DNA of 5,760 bases from a virus. The stretch is from IMG/VR virus record IMGVR_UViG_3300045988_116360, positions 1 through 5,760 of that record. One strand, 5' to 3'. Positions 1 through 5,760 of this stretch are shown here, one piece after another. The first letter of the stretch is position 1. The number at the start of each line of letters is the position of its first letter. The notes beneath the pieces were generated by a model that saw only the letters and a list, made by a program, of their open reading frames with translations, made no database searches and was not told where the DNA came from. A program made the translations under genes and the position numbers.

Positions 1-119
1 AGTATTGCGAGGATATTATAACGCAAGGTTTTTGTGTTGTTAATGGGCAAAAATTTAAAATTCCTGATTATTATCTTAAACTTTTTGAACGTAAAAATCC
101 TGTTTGGTGTCAAATTTAT
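1..119. repeat. Terminal direct repeat: 1-119 is identical to 5642-5760. This is the overlap of a circular 5641-bp genome that was linearised with redundancy.
   Basis: Aligned base by base: c111 matches c5752 and t119 matches t5760, an offset of exactly 5641. The reading frame of the Rep ORF continues across the junction. Confidence 0.95.
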
Positions 120-239
120 AAAGAACAAAGACGCGCTAACGCTTCATCTGACGTTGATATATATAGACTACAAGCCAAAGAAAAAATCATGATGAAAAAG
201 CAGGAACGTTTTACTCGAGAACTGGATAATTTAGGCTGA
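1..239 (+). CDS. VP4: Replication initiation protein (rolling-circle HUH endonuclease, gokushovirus VP4 / phiX gpA-like), C-terminal part. It continues from 4951..5760 across the circular junction. The first full codon starts at nt 3 and the TGA stop is at 237-239. The joined protein is 309 aa.
   Basis: Nt 3-239 translate without a stop (YCEDIITQGFCVVNGQKFKIPDYYLKLF...RELDNLG*). They are in frame with 4951..5760 through the 5641-bp periodicity. Confidence 0.9.
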   Translation, partial: YCEDIITQGFCVVNGQKFKIPDYYLKLFERKNPVWCQIYKEQRRANASSDVDIYRLQAKEKIMMKKQERFTRELDNLG

Positions 240-292
240 AAAAGTTGCAAAAAGTTGTTGACAGTTGTTATAAGTTGTGGTATAATAATATC
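239..292 (+). promoter_or_regulatory. Near-consensus sigma70 promoter: TTGACA (258-263), 17-bp spacer, TATAAT (281-286). Two phased A5 tracts (239-243, 249-253) lie upstream. Four 10-bp phased repeats AAAGTTGYYN (241-280) overlap the -35 and spacer.
   Basis: Read directly: aaaGTTGCAa / aaaGTTGTTg / acaGTTGTTa / taaGTTGTGg at 241, 251, 261, 271. TTGACA-N17-TATAAT is exact. The A-tracts sit in UP-element position. Confidence 0.75.
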
Positions 293-311
293 AGAAAGTG
301 AGGTAATGATT

Positions 312-671
312 ATGTTAAAAGATTATTTTGATTCTGCTATTTCTCCCGAACGTCTTAAGGTTGTTCATAATCTGCTTGATAGAGTTCCGCGTTGGCAGAT
401 TTTTGATTCTTATGGTCAAGCGCGTTCTTATCGTGCTCTGAATGACTTTAAACGCGAGGATACTGGTTATGATTATTCTATCTTTTTGTATGACGGTTTT
501 TACTATGTTATCCCTAAGGAGTATCGCCGCACTATTATTAATGAGATTGCTTTTGCTCGTCGCTCTGATGATTTTGATGATTTTTACGCTAGATTTGATA
601 AGCTTTACAGTATGAATTTGCATTCTTACTTTATCTCTAATCCTGCTGACCGTCTTATTCCTGTTAAATAG
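312..671 (+). CDS. Hypothetical 119-aa protein with no recognisable family. It is the cargo of an autonomous promoter-ORF-terminator cassette (moron-like) between Rep and VP5. About 19% of residues are aromatic and Asp/Arg are abundant.
   Basis: ATG 312 follows a GAGGT RBS (300-304) by 7 nt. T-rich third-position codon usage matches the other phage genes. The track start at 255 (TTG) is actually the promoter -35 region. ATG 306 is in frame but too close to the RBS. Confidence 0.7.
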   Translation: MLKDYFDSAISPERLKVVHNLLDRVPRWQIFDSYGQARSYRALNDFKREDTGYDYSIFLYDGFYYVIPKEYRRTIINEIAFARRSDDFDDFYARFDKLYSMNLHSYFISNPADRLIPVK

Positions 672-676
672 TTTAT

Positions 677-698
677 AGGCCGCTTCGACGGCCTTTTT
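677..698 (+). terminator. Rho-independent terminator: a 6-bp GC stem AGGCCG/CGGCCT (677-682 / 689-694), loop cttcga, then a T5 run (694-698). It sits just downstream of the 312..671 ORF.
   Basis: ataGGCCGcttcgaCGGCCTTTTTagg read directly. It lies between the stop at 669-671 and the VP5 RBS at 699-704. Confidence 0.7.
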
Positions 699-711
699 AG
701 GAGGTTTTATT

Positions 712-978
712 ATGAAAATGTACTGTATTTACGACCGGAAAGGCGAATTAATGAATCCGCCGTTTACTCAGGCTAATAATGCAATGGCGATTCGCCAGTT
801 CCAGTTGATGGCTAATCAGCCGTCCAGTCCTGAGCGCTCTAACATTATCCATGATTACGCTTCGGATTTCGCACTTTACTATCTCGGTGAATTCGATGAT
901 AAGTCTTGCGCTTTTAAGCCTGAGTGGCCTACCGTCTTGCTCGCCAATGCCGATGAACTCTTGACATCTGCTGAATAG
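712..978 (+). CDS. VP5: Gokushovirus VP5-like non-structural protein (ssDNA synthesis / DNA packaging accessory), 88 aa.
   Basis: AGGAGG RBS (699-704) lies 7 nt before ATG 712. MKMYCIYDRKGELMNPPF...AIRQF...DFALYYLGEFDDKS matches, as I remember it, the conserved VP5 pattern MKxFxIxD...PF...A.R.F...DF.L..LG.FDD. A double stop TAGTAG follows. Confidence 0.72.
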   Translation: MKMYCIYDRKGELMNPPFTQANNAMAIRQFQLMANQPSSPERSNIIHDYASDFALYYLGEFDDKSCAFKPEWPTVLLANADELLTSAE

Positions 979-989
979 TAGCGTAAAAT
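961..989 (+). promoter_or_regulatory. Candidate sigma70 promoter TTGACA (961-966) -N17- TAAAAT (984-989). It overlaps the 3' end of VP5 and reads toward VP3/VP1/VP2.
   Basis: Exact -35 consensus, 17-bp spacer, and 5 of 6 at the -10. Confidence 0.5.
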
Positions 990-1002
990 CAGAACAAATA
1001 AC

Positions 1003-1031
1003 TTGCCTTGCTTTCTTTGTTGTGATATAAT
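1003..1031 (+). promoter_or_regulatory. Candidate extended -10 promoter: TTGCCT (1003-1008) -N17- TGaTATAAT (1023-1031). An 8-bp inverted repeat AACTTGCC/GGCAAGTT (1000-1007 / 1039-1046) brackets it.
   Basis: TGnTATAAT is an exact extended -10. The -35 matches 4 of 6. Inverted repeat read directly. Confidence 0.5.
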
Positions 1032-1066
1032 CAATTTAGGCAAGTTGTGTTTATCACGACTCATTT

Positions 1067-1104
1067 AAGGCTTTGCACGTTATGTGTGAGGCCTTTTTTG
1101 TTTT
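1067..1104 (+). terminator. Possible leaky terminator or attenuator in the VP3 leader. An imperfect 13-bp RNA hairpin (1067-1095, with G.U pairs) is followed by TTTTTTGTTTT (1094-1104).
   Basis: aaggctttgcacg tta tgtgtgaggcctt followed by ttttttgtttt. It lies downstream of both candidate promoters. Together with the promoter at 1003-1031 it would define a ~65-nt transcript. Confidence 0.35.
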
Positions 1105-1218
1105 CGACGCGGCGACTTAAACGACTGCTACGCCAGTCTTTCGCTCACATCTATCTATTGCAGTCGTTTGACAAGCCGTGTCTGCCGCCTGCAAGGCACG
1201 TAGAAAGGAGTTATACCT

Positions 1219-1662
1219 ATGGCAAAATTTTTTACTCTTTACAATCAAAATCCTCCAAAGGACGGAGTTGTATTTGATGCGCCCTCACTTACAGACCAAA
1301 CTTTTAAGGACGAGTGTGATATTCATCACATTATCGACAATTTTGGCCAAACAGGACTTGTGGACAGCATCGGAAGCCGTGACCCGGCTACTTTACAATA
1401 CGGCGATACTACTTTGCTACCTGATTACGAAACCGCTTGTAATCTTGTCGCTAATGTAACCGCTGAATTTGGCGAATTGCCTTCCAAAGTCCGCGCTGAA
1501 TTTAATAACGACCCGCGTTTTCTTCTCGAAGCTCTCGGCAGCACTGAGCCTAGCGTTATCAGCCGTCTTGAAGAGCTTGGATTAAAGCCTAAATCTGATC
1601 AGCCTGACGTGCCGCCTACCACAAATCCCCAAAATTCACCACAACAACCCGAAACCAAATAG
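1219..1662 (+). CDS. VP3: Internal scaffolding protein (gokushovirus VP3), 147 aa, with a Pro/Gln-rich C-terminal tail.
   Basis: AAGGAG RBS (1205-1210) lies 8 nt before ATG 1219. The motif SLTDQTFKDECDIHHII matches the conserved gokushovirus VP3 signature (..KQSFKDECDIN.I..) as I recall it. Confidence 0.82.
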   Translation: MAKFFTLYNQNPPKDGVVFDAPSLTDQTFKDECDIHHIIDNFGQTGLVDSIGSRDPATLQYGDTTLLPDYETACNLVANVTAEFGELPSKVRAEFNNDPRFLLEALGSTEPSVISRLEELGLKPKSDQPDVPPTTNPQNSPQQPETK

Positions 1663-1779
1663 TTAGCTAGTGAACGTCTCTCTTTGGTATGTTCTTCGAT
1701 GGTATGGCTCTGTGAAAAGGCCTAAAGCTTGCTAAATTAGTCTAGCTAAAAACATTTTATAGTATAGGTTAAAATACTA

Positions 1780-1826
1780 GTCACCTGTACCAGTTACCGT
1801 ACTTGATAGTAACTGGTACAGGTGAC
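1780..1826. repeat. Perfect 18-bp inverted repeat forming a hairpin: GTCACCTGTACCAGTTAC (1780-1797), loop cgtACTTGATA (1798-1808), GTAACTGGTACAGGTGAC (1809-1826). It lies in the 283-nt VP3-VP1 intergenic region and is a candidate replication origin.
   Basis: The right arm is the exact reverse complement of the left arm. The loop contains ACTTGATA followed by gTAAC, compared with the phiX174 ori CAACTTGATATTAATAAC. Confidence 0.8.
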
Positions 1827-1840
1827 ACAAAATCTCATCT

Positions 1841-1857
1841 CCGTTGATATAGAACGG
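1841..1857. repeat. Small hairpin: CCGTT (1841-1845), loop GATATAG, AACGG (1853-1857). The stem/loop junction reads cGTTGATAT.
   Basis: Read directly. It contains TTGATAT, the centre of the phiX gpA cleavage sequence CTTG^ATAT. Confidence 0.55.
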
Positions 1858-1954
1858 TTTCCATTAAAATTTATTAAGTTGAGATTTCTAGTAAATAGTT
1901 ACGCATCTGCGGCTATTTACCCGTTTATTTATTTTTAAAAGTGAGGTGTTTTAT

Positions 1955-3712
1955 ATGGCCAAAAATATACGCGTCAATCAAAGTCATTTCGCGCTTTTGC
2001 CGCAGGCTAATATCAAGCGCTCGGTATTTGACCGTTCATTCGTCTATAAAACGACTTTTGACGAAGGTAAGTTAATTCCCTACTTTGTCGATGAAGTTTT
2101 GCCCGGCGATACTTTTACATTGAATCCGGTCGAGTTTTGTCGTTTGTCTACGCCGGTAGTGCCATTTATGGATAATTTGTATATTGAATCATTTTTCTTC
2201 TTTGTCCCTTGTCGTCTTGTATGGGACAACTGGGTACGAATGTGTGGCGAACAAGAAAATCCCGAGGACAGCACAGATTTTATTGTTCCGACAATTTCTT
2301 ATGACGGTAACACTCCTGCTTCTCTTTTTGATTATTTTGGCCTTGGTTCTAAGAGCTTCGGTTCTGCTGCTGTTTCTCAGATGAATGTTAATGCTCTTCC
2401 ATTTCGCGCTTATTGGCTCGTTTGGAATGAGTGGTTTCGTGACGAAAATCTGCAGAAGTCTGTTAAAGTTTCTAAAGGTGATACTAACTCGGTCGTTGAA
2501 GCTATGGGTAGCGGCACTGTTAACCCTAATTACGGTTTTCCTGACGGCGTTACTCGTTGGTATCAATGTGCTCCGCGTGGTAAACGCCACGATTATTTCA
2601 CATCCTGCTTGCCTTGGCCGCAAAAAGGCCCAGCCGTTGATTTGCCATTAGGGCAAACTGCTGATATTGTCTCGACTGGCGAGCCTTTTACTTTGAAATG
2701 GTCTGGTGGTCAACAGGATATTCATGGCGGGGGTGCTCATTACGTTTGGTCTTCTTCTGAGGATACATATCTTACTCCATCTTATTACAAAACTGTTGCT
2801 AATCAGCCTTCTAGTGCTTCTCCTCCTTCTACTGCTGTTACTGATTCTTTAACTTCTTCAACTGGTTCTCGTACTAATGGTTCTGATGTCACTTATAAGT
2901 CTAATGTAGCTTCCTTCGGTTCCGTAACTGGTTTGCAGGCTAATCTTTCTTCTGCTACATCTATAACTATTAACTCTCTGCGTCAAGCCTTTATGCTCCA
3001 GCGTTATTACGAGATTGATGCGCGCGGCGGTACCCGTTATACGGAAAAATTGCAGGCTCACTTTGGCGTAACTAATCCTGATGCACGTTTGCAGCGTCCT
3101 GAGTTCTTAGGCTCTCACAGCGCTATGATGAGCATTAATCCTATTGCTCAGACTTCTAGCACTAACGATACTAGTCCGCAAGGCAACTTGGCTGCCTATG
3201 GCGTTCATGGTCAGCGTTATCATGCTTTCACAAAATCCTTTAGCGAATTTGGTTACGTTATTGGCTTAATTAACGTTCGTGCTGACCTTACGTATCAGCA
3301 AGGCATACATCGTATGTGGACGCGTTCTGACATGTTTGACTTCTATTGGCCATCCTTTGCCCATCTTGGAGAGCAGGTTGTACTTAATAAAGAGATTTAC
3401 GCTCAGGGTACTGCTGATGATGACAAAGTTTTTGGCTATCAGGAGCGTTATGCTGAGTATCGTTATAAGCCGTCTCTGATTACTGGTCAGTTCCGTAGCA
3501 CTTATAAAGAGACTTTGGATGTTTGGCACTTAAGCCAAAAATTTGATTCTTTGCCCACTTTATCTGACCAATTTATTCAAGACCATCCGCCTATCAGTCG
3601 TGTCGTTGCTGTTCCGACTTATCCGCATTTTCTCTTAGATGTTAAGTTTAATTTAAAATGTATCAGGCCTATGCCCATGTTTGGCACGCCCGGTATGATG
3701 GGTCATTTTTGA
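1955..3712 (+). CDS. VP1: Major capsid protein (gokushovirus VP1 / phiX F-like jelly-roll), 585 aa from ATG 1955. An in-frame GTG at 1946 would give 588 aa. It contains a Ser/Thr-rich low-complexity insertion at about nt 2746-2985.
   Basis: GAGGTG RBS (1943-1948) lies 6 nt before ATG 1955. The size and conserved block INSLRQAFMLQRYYEIDARGGTRYTEKLQAHFGV are typical of microvirus major capsid proteins. This is the largest ORF, as expected for VP1. Confidence 0.93.
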   Translation: MAKNIRVNQSHFALLPQANIKRSVFDRSFVYKTTFDEGKLIPYFVDEVLPGDTFTLNPVEFCRLSTPVVPFMDNLYIESFFFFVPCRLVWDNWVRMCGEQENPEDSTDFIVPTISYDGNTPASLFDYFGLGSKSFGSAAVSQMNVNALPFRAYWLVWNEWFRDENLQKSVKVSKGDTNSVVEAMGSGTVNPNYGFPDGVTRWYQCAPRGKRHDYFTSCLPWPQKGPAVDLPLGQTADIVSTGEPFTLKWSGGQQDIHGGGAHYVWSSSEDTYLTPSYYKTVANQPSSASPPSTAVTDSLTSSTGSRTNGSDVTYKSNVASFGSVTGLQANLSSATSITINSLRQAFMLQRYYEIDARGGTRYTEKLQAHFGVTNPDARLQRPEFLGSHSAMMSINPIAQTSSTNDTSPQGNLAAYGVHGQRYHAFTKSFSEFGYVIGLINVRADLTYQQGIHRMWTRSDMFDFYWPSFAHLGEQVVLNKEIYAQGTADDDKVFGYQERYAEYRYKPSLITGQFRSTYKETLDVWHLSQKFDSLPTLSDQFIQDHPPISRVVAVPTYPHFLLDVKFNLKCIRPMPMFGTPGMMGHF

Positions 3713-3727
3713 GCGAGGTGATTTTTT

Positions 3728-4504
3728 ATGGGACTTGGTTGGCTTGGTTCTGCCGTTGGCGGTCTCATTGGCGGCTCACTCTCTAATTCCGCATCTCGTC
3801 ATGCGATGGATAGTCAGATTGCTACTAATCGTTATGATTATCAGCATCGTTATCAATGGGCGATGCAGGATATGCAAAAAGCTGGCCTTAATCCTATTCT
3901 TGCAGCTACGCAAGGTATTGCCGGCACTGTTAATGGTGCTTCCGCCCTCGGCGCGTCTTATAATTCTATTGGCGGCGATTTAGCTGCAGGAGCTGGAGCT
4001 GATGCGGCTTCTAATTCTGCTAAAGCGCAGCAAAAGCACGCTGATGTAGCTGATAAATTGTCCTTTGGCCAAATAAAGCAGATGGATAGTCAAATTGCTC
4101 TTAATGCTTCATCTGCTAAAAAGCTTGATGAGGACACATTAAGTACTCATTTGGCTAATCGTCTTTTTAACGATAGTTATAATTATCAGCTCGATATTTA
4201 CCGGCAAAATCTTGAGAATTCTAAAAAGCAAGGCGCTTATATTGATTCGCAGATTGCTAATAATCAGTTTATGCGTGATGTTGTAATGCCTGCTCAGGCT
4301 TTTAGCTACACTGCCCAAGGCAATGCTTCCAATTCTGCCGCTGATTATAACGGTAAATTAGGTCTTTTGGCTGATAGAGATTATGAGTACAAAGGTTATA
4401 GAAATAAGGATTATGGTACTTATGGTAACGCTGATGATGGCGGTTTATTTTCTACTCTTGGCCGTTATGGCTCGCGTTTGGTCAATAGTATTTTTGGTAA
4501 TTAA
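3728..4504 (+). CDS. VP2: Minor capsid / DNA pilot protein (gokushovirus VP2, phiX H analogue), 258 aa. The N-terminus is Gly-rich and there are three internal [MI]DSQIAxN repeats.
   Basis: GAGGTG RBS (3715-3720) lies 7 nt before ATG 3728. MGLGWLGSAVGGLIGG and the motif QKAGLNPILAA resemble remembered VP2/H pilot proteins. The position directly after VP1 fits. Confidence 0.8.
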   Translation: MGLGWLGSAVGGLIGGSLSNSASRHAMDSQIATNRYDYQHRYQWAMQDMQKAGLNPILAATQGIAGTVNGASALGASYNSIGGDLAAGAGADAASNSAKAQQKHADVADKLSFGQIKQMDSQIALNASSAKKLDEDTLSTHLANRLFNDSYNYQLDIYRQNLENSKKQGAYIDSQIANNQFMRDVVMPAQAFSYTAQGNASNSAADYNGKLGLLADRDYEYKGYRNKDYGTYGNADDGGLFSTLGRYGSRLVNSIFGN

Positions 4505-4519
4505 TAAGGAGTTGATTTT

Positions 4520-4783
4520 ATGTCTAACAAAACTACTGCTATTCTTACTTTCCTCGTCTCTACTGTTATCCCTTTTATCCAAGAGGTAGTCGATTTTATT
4601 TCTATGTTTCGGACTGGGACTTATGACAAATCAGGCTCGGATAGCTTGCGCTCTATCAGCCTTGCTATGCAAGACGACCTTGTCAATATGCAAAAAAGAG
4701 AGGTAAAAACTGAAGATTCCTTTCGCTCCGTTGCAAGTACGGAAGAAAAACCATACTCCAGATTTTTGGGAAAAACTCATTAA
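4520..4783 (+). CDS. Hypothetical 87-aa protein with a single N-terminal transmembrane helix (TTAILTFLVSTVIPFI, with an internal Pro) and a hydrophilic, acidic C-terminal domain. Candidate membrane, lysis or exclusion protein.
   Basis: Strong AAGGAG RBS (4506-4511) lies 8 nt before ATG 4520. Codon usage matches the phage. Without it there would be a 318-nt non-coding gap in an otherwise compact genome. Confidence 0.55.
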   Translation: MSNKTTAILTFLVSTVIPFIQEVVDFISMFRTGTYDKSGSDSLRSISLAMQDDLVNMQKREVKTEDSFRSVASTEEKPYSRFLGKTH

Positions 4784-4822
4784 TATTTTAACTCTCGGCC
4801 TTGCTTATAGGAGGTTAAAAAA

Positions 4823-4936
4823 ATGAAACGTCGACCTATCAGCCGTGGAAAGAGTAAGCGTAATTTTCGCAATCATTCTATTCCGCGTCCAGCAAATCTC
4901 AAAGCCCGCAATATGCGTGGCGGCATTAGAATGTAA
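4823..4936 (+). CDS. VP8: Small, highly basic (13 of 37 residues are Arg/Lys) DNA-binding/packaging protein. Analogue of gokushovirus VP8 or phiX J.
   Basis: TAGGAGGT RBS (4808-4815) lies 7 nt before ATG 4823. It translates to MKRRPISRGKSKRNFRNHSIPRPANLKARNMRGGIRM. The ORF track missed it because it is short. Confidence 0.6.
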   Translation: MKRRPISRGKSKRNFRNHSIPRPANLKARNMRGGIRM

Positions 4937-4950
4937 AGGAACGTGATAAC

Positions 4951-5760
4951 ATGACTTGCCTACATCCGTTGTTGGCGTCTCCATACGCTCTGCCTAACGA
5001 AAATGGCAAAATAGAGTACAAAGTATGGGGCGCAGTAGAAAAATTCGATACAGAGACTCTGAGGCGCTTTAAAACGGGTTTTCACGCTATTCCTATTCCT
5101 TGCGGTCAGTGTCTTGGCTGTCGCTTGGATAAAGCTAACGAATGGGCTATCCGCTGCGTTCATGAGGCTAAGCTGTATCGCCGTAACTGTTTTATTACTC
5201 TCACTTACAATGATGATAATTTACCAGATGACAATTCCCTTCATCGGGAGCATCTGCAGCTTTTTTTGAAAAGATTGCGCAGGAATTTAGATTATGTTAA
5301 AAGTATCAAAATACGTTTTTTGGCTTGCGGTGAGTACGGGTCTCTTAATATGCGCCCTCATTATCATATACTTGTTTTCGGTTGGTTTCCTTCTGATGTT
5401 CGCAAGCTCTCGGCGCTAACTAGTGGCTATAACCTCTTTCGTTCTCCTCTGCTTGAGAGACTTTGGCCGTATGGCTTTAATACTGTTGGAGCTGTAACTT
5501 TTGAGAGTGCGCGATATGTTGCTAAGTATAGCCTCAAAAAGCAGACTGGTCAAAATGCTGCTATGTACGACCTTCTCGGGATTAAGCCTGAGTTTGTCAG
5601 CTGTTCTCTTAAGCCCGGTATTGGAGCTGATTTTTTTAATCAGTATTGCGAGGATATTATAACGCAAGGTTTTTGTGTTGTTAATGGGCAAAAATTTAAA
5701 ATTCCTGATTATTATCTTAAACTTTTTGAACGTAAAAATCCTGTTTGGTGTCAAATTTAT
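4951..5760 (+). CDS. VP4: Replication initiation protein VP4 (HUH rolling-circle endonuclease), N-terminal 270 codons. The ORF is open to the window end and continues at 1..239. RCR motifs: CFITLTY (motif 1), PHYHILVF (HxH motif 2) and ARYVAKY (catalytic Tyr motif 3, identical to the phiX gpA YVAKY).
   Basis: AAGGAA (4936-4941) precedes ATG 4951. It translates to MTCLHPLL...IPCGQCLGCRL...GEYGSLNMRPHYHILVFGWF...ARYVAKYSLKKQ with no stop up to 5760. The ORF track missed it because no stop lies inside the window. Confidence 0.92.
   Translation, partial: MTCLHPLLASPYALPNENGKIEYKVWGAVEKFDTETLRRFKTGFHAIPIPCGQCLGCRLDKANEWAIRCVHEAKLYRRNCFITLTYNDDNLPDDNSLHREHLQLFLKRLRRNLDYVKSIKIRFLACGEYGSLNMRPHYHILVFGWFPSDVRKLSALTSGYNLFRSPLLERLWPYGFNTVGAVTFESARYVAKYSLKKQTGQNAAMYDLLGIKPEFVSCSLKPGIGADFFNQYCEDIITQGFCVVNGQKFKIPDYYLKLFERKNPVWCQIY

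Follow-up and report, generated by a model that had tools for sequence, protein, structure and literature searches.

The window analyzed here, the whole stretch of 5,760 nucleotides (nt) from IMG/VR virus record IMGVR_UViG_3300045988_116360 (positions 1 to 5,760), comprised one circular gokushovirus genome of 5,641 nt and an overlap of 119 nt (1–119 = 5642–5760). Between the genes for Rep (VP4) and VP5 it carried ORFx, an open reading frame (ORF) of 119 amino acids (aa) that stood behind a consensus promoter, P1, and was followed by a hairpin. We put at about even the chance that ORFx encodes an early host-directed accessory protein, acting in anti-defence, in host takeover or, in a variant of this reading, in superinfection exclusion. 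Our confidence is much higher for the anatomical statements below, and much lower for any specific target, than for this host-directed reading. The original prediction, made from the letters of the sequence, had described ORFx as the cargo of a self-contained promoter–ORF–terminator moron inserted between two core genes. A non-core accessory gene under a very strong promoter was indeed found, but the autonomy of the unit, its insertion and its ownership of the promoter were not supported.

The ORFx gene family and its protein

The ORFx family comprised 41 homologous clusters at 90% identity, or 72 with a broader profile; at 50% identity there were 15 clusters (exhaustive HMMER search, 1.84 billion representatives). 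All contigs of the first homologue search were at most 5.7 kb long, and the gene order was Rep-ORFx-VP5 at every locus fetched for its homologues. The gene was held at this slot throughout one clade of ~5.5-kb human-gut gokushoviruses, and family matches of both neighbors confirmed its location between two conserved genes (Table 1). ORFx is restricted to this lineage and a large-phage branch, and most gokushoviruses do not have it among their core genes; in smaller gokushoviruses, which lack the cassette, VP4 and VP5 are adjacent. Searches by tblastn gave no match for ORFx in 50,697 phage records, and none for ORFx or its large-phage homologue in GenBank phages and PLSDB plasmids. No integrated copy was found in 185,579 representative bacterial and archaeal genomes, and a metagenome scan yielded only two additional loci. 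A weak hint of the host came from one 1,092-nt contig, which was binned in a metagenome-assembled genome of Phascolarctobacterium.

The composition predicted for the protein was confirmed: it contains 23 Phe, Tyr or Trp, 14 Asp and 12 Arg residues and has no hydrophobic segment (top 19-residue Kyte-Doolittle mean 0.12). Its isoelectric point (pI) is 6.7, and the family median is 8.45. No family was matched in Pfam or PHROG, including those of the gokushovirus core genes VP1–VP5 and VP8, and fold comparison gave no match either, including no helix-turn-helix or other DNA-binding fold, in agreement with the lack of a recognizable motif noted earlier. An acidic DNA mimic of the Ocr/ArdA type was ruled out by the charge of the protein, and PF07275 was not matched. 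The AlphaFold model consisted of a small, conserved alpha/beta N-terminal domain (residues 1–68) and a long, variable C-terminal helix (69–104), with a predicted local distance difference test (pLDDT) score of 87 over the whole chain and 91.5 over residues 1–72. Nineteen residues were invariant over the 41 clusters, including those of the N-terminal MLKDY, Y-x-QARS-x-R and Y-x-GF-x-Y motifs. Identities in the alignment went down to 35%, and the indels kept the reading frame.

Among genome pairs, the nonsynonymous divergence (dN) of ORFx ranged from 0.21 to 0.62, and its ratio to the synonymous divergence (dN/dS) ranged from 0.32 to 0.65 and was below 1 in every pair. The ratios in the same pairs were 0.05–0.08 for Rep, 0.01–0.07 for VP5 and 0.07–0.15 for VP1, and VP2 was the only gene near ORFx within the clade. 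ORFx evolved 5–10 times faster than Rep and VP5. The conservation of the ORF was accordingly not noise: by its substitutions ORFx is a real, translated-looking gene under selection that is purifying but relaxed or diversifying. It is highly improbable that ORFx is a functionless, decaying ORF, open merely by its position between a needed promoter and VP5. The high dN/dS, a deletion in genome L014 and a nearly unrecognizable copy in genome L020 would fit such decay, but the ratio below 1 throughout, the invariant residues, the frame-preserving indels, the confident fold and the spread over 72 clusters and a second type of virus speak against it.

Between the window and its relative L002, ORFx was 47% identical, whereas the other six genes were 76–92% identical, and C-terminal tails of ORFx were shuffled among otherwise different alleles. 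This suggested that ORFx alleles are exchanged by recombination. Genomes in which VP5 was 74–79% identical to that of the window had either clear ORFx homologues or very divergent ones (17–27 bits), and the copy in L020 was badly diverged. In L014 (IMGVR_UViG_3300045988_121362, 5,276 bp), a deletion had taken P1 and the N-terminal two-thirds of ORFx. Its spacer between Rep and VP5 (1403–1500) translates to LFDGLYYVVPHLAKQEFLALLKKKNFEVKK, the in-frame C-terminus of an allele of the L021 type, and its VP5 was left without the nearest promoter. This was the single absence of ORFx among the clade members examined, and it was a deletion rather than a lack of insertion. As this contig reads, at least one natural genome can do without ORFx. 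The divergent copies and the natural loss indicated that ORFx is an accessory, not a core gene.

Promoter P1, the hairpin and the Rep/VP5 junction

The promoter and its phased A5 tracts were present as originally described. P1 matched the consensus TTGACA-N17-TATAAT at 12/12 positions, the sole such site in the window, and had an extended -10 TG as well; at no more than one mismatch, three distinct window sites fitted the pattern, against 0.06 expected (200 shuffles). The TG-n-TATAAT element was invariant in 11/11 aligned genomes, with a single -10 mismatch in two further genomes, and the TTGACA -35 was found in eight of the 11. By this sequence evidence, P1 is a clade-conserved consensus promoter of the sigma-70/sigma-A type with an extended -10. 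Its transcription start is predicted near position 293. The ribosome-binding site and the ORF stood where they had been placed, with the Shine-Dalgarno sequence inside an invariant 5′ untranslated region, AGAAAGTGAGGT.

Direct repeats extended from position 239, where the Rep stop codon (237–239) ends, through the -35, with AAGTTG cores at 242–247, 252–257 and 272–277 and an AGTTG core at 264–268. Clade relatives held two to four copies. Repeats at the Rep stop were located at 239–280 in the window, at 4073–4115 in L005 and at 1953–1976 in L037. In the KT264820 lineage, two or three copies of GTTGCAATTTTT with a 12-nt period occupied the same place after the Rep stop, together with TGtTATAAT, and were followed by an unrelated ~90-aa ORF with its own small family; this ORF was rejected as a relative of ORFx (hhalign probability 0.4%). 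The repeats of both lineages had a GTTGCAA core in common, whichever slot gene followed. Their position is that of an UP element or curved DNA, which is a possible role, or alternatively they may be a site for Rep or a host factor. A replication origin is unlikely, since the repeats also occur with an unrelated slot gene and the genome holds a better origin candidate (the hairpin at 1780–1826). An operator for ORFx is unlikely as well, since such repeats stand before an unrelated slot gene.

A Cro-like autoregulator, in which ORFx would bind the AAAGTTG repeats overlapping its own promoter and act as an early switch, is decidedly unlikely. The repeats do overlap the -35 with a helical period, and both they and a conserved basic helix of the protein are nearly invariant clade-wide. 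However, GTTGCAA-core repeats also accompany the unrelated slot protein of the KT264820 lineage, and L020 keeps the repeats though its putative recognition helix is lost. The missing match to any DNA-binding fold and the large-phage homologues, upstream of which no AAAGTTG-type repeats were found, argue in the same direction.

The Rep/VP5 junction varied among other gokushoviruses. Rep and VP5 were separated by 13 nt in NC_027637 and overlapped in KT264826. In MK765602 the slot gene was absent, yet the 72-nt spacer contained TTGCTT-N17-TGtTAAAAT. OM869541 had TTGTAA-N17-TGtTACAAT followed by an unrelated 81-aa ORF, and in L037 the junction promoter was again paired with an unrelated slot ORF. 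Direct repeats accompanied the junction promoter in two lineages. Because this promoter recurs with unrelated slot ORFs (KT264820, L037 and OM869541) or with none (MK765602), P1 seems to reside in the virus backbone and not to be a part of the cargo, as had been proposed. The junction looks like a general accessory-gene site; on the sequences compared, the most economical reading is that lineages keep different small genes between a resident strong promoter and VP5. No relatives of the other gokushovirus slot ORFs were found in the large-phage array described below. Two further junctions had several small elements: PP511735 (L028, 879–1299) contained a VP8-like basic peptide and two small ORFs, and the promoter-driven 81-aa ORF of OM869541 (L029, 827–1290) was accompanied by G/C-rich hairpins, a second promoter and a VP8-like peptide.

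The GC hairpin and T5 run described as a terminator were also present. Taken alone, this hairpin was not stronger than shuffled sequence (z = -0.9), and a consensus terminator scan missed it because the extension of its stem by one A-T pair consumes the first T of the T-run. A hairpin with a T-run was found at the 3′ end of ORFx in 7/7 genomes of the window's subclade (subclade A), where it was built on two unrelated stems, AGGCCGC/GCGGCCT and GGGCGCAyGTGCGCCC. That suggested that the structure, not the sequence, was selected. The hairpin was accepted as real because of this conservation and not because of its folding energy. In the sister subclade B, which has a 93-aa VP5, the terminator was absent in 15/15 genomes, and ORFx abutted or overlapped VP5, with its stop 23 nt within VP5 at one extreme and 10 nt short of the VP5 start codon at the other. 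The missing terminator and the abutting or overlapping genes of subclade B indicated that ORFx and VP5 form one operon.

No credible promoter was found between ORFx and VP5 (672–711) in the consensus scan, and none of three promoter-like sites that hold fixed positions in six genomes lay there. P1 is thus the nearest promoter for VP5 and, VP5 having no other, its transcripts must read through the hairpin, which has to be leaky. The hairpin is probably a partial terminator or attenuator between the two genes. It was probably added later in the window's subclade, attenuating rather than blocking VP5 transcription. The genomes compared therefore do not support a self-contained unit, since P1 must also feed VP5 and the 15 sister genomes have no terminator.

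A moron in the strict sense, which would be an autonomous unit recently inserted between VP4 and VP5 by horizontal transfer and possibly expressed from a prophage (lysogenic conversion), is unlikely. The promoter–ORF–hairpin architecture of the window fits it, units of like design, homologues included, populate the array of the large phage, and smaller gokushoviruses have adjoining VP4 and VP5. ORFx is also somewhat AT-richer than the genome (35.8 vs. 41.5% GC). However, its codon usage was no outlier (cosine 0.857, within the range of the other genes), and the bacterial and archaeal genomes searched contained no integrated copy. The slot is fixed over the entire clade at saturated dS, its sole absence being the secondary deletion with a remnant in L014, and this speaks against the insertion that had been claimed. 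The recurrence of the junction promoter with other slot genes or none, its service to VP5 and the lack of the terminator throughout the sister subclade also weigh against a strict moron.

Homologues in a large phage and the proposed role of ORFx

The broader profile search revealed a distant branch of ORFx of 102–103 aa on contigs of 50–106 kb, with the pattern MLRYGDWKY...DAKKYR...NGRY...YQFDGKYYLLP. P0051, a member of this branch, was matched by the pure gokushovirus profile with E = 1.8e-6 in the library of 1.84 billion, and hhalign aligned the two branches over 72 columns with 95.7% probability (E = 9.8e-9). A second full-length paralogue, beginning with MLK, was located 360 nt upstream (93.5% probability). 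In IMG/VR, the large element (IMGVR_UViG_3300045988_146036) was a viral genome of 102,144 bp from a human gut sample, and assemblies of ~100–106 kb recurred across several samples. Megablast of a 20-kb region of this element against public records gave no match.

The large-phage homologue lay within a long same-strand array of ORFs of 50–180 aa without Pfam matches, and a gene for the anti-restriction protein ArdA was found 3.1 kb upstream in the same array. The array contained eight perfect TTGACA-N17-TATAAT promoters and 11 with 11/12 matches (19 at ≥11/12), and 30 terminator-like hairpins against 9.8 expected. As far as these predicted signals go, it is a string of promoter–ORF–terminator units of the same design as the window cassette. 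It was flanked by genes for DNA methyltransferases, an RNA ligase, a Tgt/DpdA-like protein and a QueC-like protein (7-deazaguanine genes). Gene sets of the methyltransferase/Tgt/QueC type are typical of large phages that invest in restriction evasion. The promoter and Shine-Dalgarno style common to both viruses presumably reflects a Bacillota-like rather than a Bacteroidota host. In the middle of the array, ~2.1 kb (L038, 11903–14033) contained no tRNA and no ORF of at least 60 aa.

A gene that is useful to both a 5.6-kb single-stranded DNA (ssDNA) virus and a 100-kb double-stranded DNA (dsDNA) phage suggested a function directed at their shared host. A role in microvirus replication or assembly is disfavored because the large dsDNA phage also keeps the gene. 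More tentatively, and with the balance of probability somewhat against it, ORFx would represent a host-directed family with a new fold whose members passed between the gokushovirus clade and a ~100-kb phage infecting the same gut host, with the Rep/VP5 junction as a landing pad for the different small accessory genes of gokushovirus lineages.

In the host-directed reading, ORFx would head a transcription unit in the order P1, ORFx, leaky terminator and VP5. Once the incoming ssDNA has been made double-stranded, host RNA polymerase would fire P1, and a small soluble protein would be made abundantly. Its conserved, aromatic and arginine-rich N-terminal domain would bind a host component, for example a defence or housekeeping protein, and the variable C-terminal helix may tune specificity or oligomerization. 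In the window's subclade, the hairpin and T-run would lower VP5 transcription without abolishing it and so yield a high ratio of ORFx to VP5. The weak terminators of phiX174 set comparable expression ratios.

The principal alternative is a virus-internal factor working with VP5 or Rep, either in the switch from dsDNA replication to ssDNA synthesis and packaging or in nucleic-acid binding through an Arg/aromatic surface; we consider it rather doubtful. ORFx and VP5 belong to one operon, in one subclade the stop codon of the first meets or overlaps the start of the second, and the conserved QARSYR helix and a Tyr-rich hairpin of the model could bind nucleic acid. However, most gokushoviruses replicate without ORFx, it is deleted in L014, and its evolution is 5–10 times faster than that of Rep or VP5. 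Homologues, moreover, are carried by a large dsDNA phage, whose replication and packaging are of an entirely different kind.

Several points weigh against the host-directed reading. The operon linkage and the close translational coupling with VP5 in one subclade could mean a virus-internal role, and the activity of P1 and of the hairpin is predicted only. No known-domain match pointing to a specific activity of ORFx was found, and the route of Ocr/ArdA-type mimicry is closed to a protein that is not acidic. The high dN/dS could reflect relaxed constraint instead of an arms race, and dS was near saturation in many pairs. Dispensability rests on one metagenome-assembled contig, which is possibly defective. 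Guilt by association with ArdA is weak in an array with dozens of unknown genes. Two walking steps along the 102-kb contig met accessory and nucleic-acid genes only and no capsid or terminase gene, and the label "phage" rests on IMG/VR membership and PHROG hits.

Other elements of the genome and comparison with known systems

All genes mapped in the window lay on the plus strand (Table 1). The order VP4-VP5-VP3-VP1-VP2 was the same as that reported in human-gut gokushoviruses (PMC3394797). The cassette had been thought to help explain the length of the genome; it does add ~460 nt, but 728 nt of non-coding DNA and the 87-aa ORF also contribute.

Table 1. Coordinates of genes and predicted elements in the window.
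Feature	Position	Strand	Remarks
Rep/VP4	4951–5641, then 1–239	+	PF23343, PHROG 942
A5 tracts, two	239–243 and 249–253	+	spaced 10 nt, just 5′ of -35
Direct repeats (A)AAAGTTGY / GTTGYAAAAA	239–280	+	10-nt period; Rep stop codon through -35
Promoter P1	258–286	+	-35 TTGACA 258–263, 17-nt spacer, extended -10 TG 278–279, -10 TATAAT 281–286
Shine-Dalgarno GTGAGG (ORFx)	298–303	+	8 nt 5′ of ATG at 312
ORFx, 119 aa	312–671	+	no family match
Hairpin and T5	677–698	+	6-bp stem AGGCCG/CGGCCT 677–694, 6-nt loop, T5 694–698; -10.2 kcal/mol
Shine-Dalgarno AGGAGG (VP5)	699–704	+	heads downstream cistron VP5
VP5	712–978	+	PF20577, E 4.5e-22
Promoter-like P2, TTGACA-17-TAAAAT	961–989		conserved
Promoter-like P3, TTGCCT-17-TGaTATAAT	1003–1031		conserved; bracketed by invariant inverted repeat CTTGCCT...AGGCAAG
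Two hairpins and U-run, ~65 nt	1038–1103		-24 kcal/mol, z = -4.75; strong terminator end
VP3 scaffold	1219–1662	+	PF09675
Perfect 18–19-bp hairpin	1780–1826		VP3-VP1 spacer; both subclades, compensatory stem changes
VP1 capsid	1955–3712	+	PF02305
VP2 pilot	3728–4504	+	PHROG 8693
87-aa ORF	4520–4783	+	PHROG 23638 (function unknown)
37-aa basic ORF	4823–4935	+	PHROG 10695 (function unknown)

The two-hairpin unit at 1038–1103, which lies upstream of VP3, may be a small RNA or a leader/attenuator. In 10 genomes, at least six pairs of its 12-bp terminator stem had compensatory changes; an Rfam scan of the window, this unit included, gave no credible match. The hairpin between VP3 and VP1 may be the origin of the viral strand or may present a nick site for Rep. 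Its loop and the start of its 3′ stem read TACTTGATAGTAAC, which was invariant, and ACTTGATA in the loop agreed letter for letter with the phiX174 origin on either side of its annotated nick, AACTTG|ATA (4305/4306). This 8-mer match alone is not significant, and it is the conserved context that makes the lead. A literature search turned up no earlier description of an origin hairpin in gokushoviruses.

Three side observations were made. An inverted repeat, AAACGACTGC...GCAGTCGTTT, lies at 1120–1170 in the VP5-VP3 spacer; aligned relatives had apparently compensatory differences, such as ATGGCCGC...GCGGTCAT in L002, and it may be another structured element. On the minus strand, a promoter-like site with 11/12 matches, TTAACA-17-TATAAT, at 15–43 (= 5656–5684) runs antisense in the 3′ part of rep and was kept at 10–11/12 only within subclade A. 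Since the Rep coding stretch around it is highly conserved, coding constraint probably accounts for the site. The 87-aa ORF between VP2 and the 37-aa basic protein has a hydrophobic N-terminal segment, TAILTFLVSTVIPFI. The identity of the ORF was 67–92% across the clade and 43% in KT264820, and its dN/dS was 0.1–0.3; its product could be a membrane or lysis protein. To our knowledge, the lysis genes of gokushoviruses are mostly unidentified.

Microviruses are reported to have limited accessory repertoires, mainly of methyltransferases and lysis enzymes, and only rare gene exchange outside the family (Kirchberger et al., 2022); they have been reported as genetically isolated with a minimal accessory repertoire (PMC9239249). 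A promoter-equipped slot, a fast-evolving orphan family and homology to a gene of a large dsDNA phage run counter to this minimal view. If exchange and the landing pad are true, they would be a concrete counter-example to the reported isolation (PMC9239249). If ORFx is an anti-defence or takeover factor, the synthesizable 5.6-kb genome and the 119-aa protein would offer a tractable system for finding a new host target. The shared gene could also help to show that uncultured microviruses and large phages of the gut have a host in common. Together, the consensus promoter, the leaky terminator and the small-RNA-like unit provide a first testable transcription map for this gokushovirus group.

Several known systems resemble ORFx in part. 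The moron is a concept of Juhala and Hendrix for tailed phages. Like tailed-phage morons, ORFx is small, non-core, dispensable and fast-evolving, with a strong promoter on its 5′ side and, in this genome, a hairpin on its 3′ side. Unlike them, its promoter seems to reside in the backbone and to serve VP5, the gene is ancestral to the clade, the terminator is lineage-specific, and no sign of lysogeny was seen. Judged from the genomes compared, ORFx departs from a moron in two respects, sporadic insertion and prophage expression, and has an autonomous terminator only in its subclade.

Enterogokushoviruses have a defensive hypervariable region within VP2, which was proposed to act in superinfection exclusion (Kirchberger et al., 2021, as cited in PMC9239249, PMC10002423 and PMC9512667). 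As described in those citing papers, that region is, like ORFx, a recombining, hypervariable part of a gokushovirus with a possible role in conflict. Unlike the region so described, ORFx is a gene of its own, located between Rep and VP5, and it shows no resemblance to VP2.

Proteins of the ArdA/Ocr type are small and are made early by incoming mobile DNA. The large-phage homologues of ORFx occupy the same array as ArdA, but ORFx is near-neutral to basic and has neither sequence nor fold similarity to these proteins. The K and A* proteins of phiX174 are small and non-essential and are overprinted within essential genes. ORFx would likewise be a small, dispensable microvirus protein that modulates infection and does not build the virion; unlike them, it stands alone as a gene, has a ribosome-binding site of its own and lies directly behind a promoter, and it has no similarity to either.

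The host-takeover module of SPO1 is an example of an early gene array of a large lytic phage. ORFx resembles such arrays in its design, with a protein of ~100 aa, a near-consensus TTGACA-N17-TGnTATAAT promoter, a strong Shine-Dalgarno sequence and often a terminator, and its homologues in the 102-kb gut phage lie in just such an array. In contrast to these arrays, ORFx is a single such gene in a 5.6-kb ssDNA virus.

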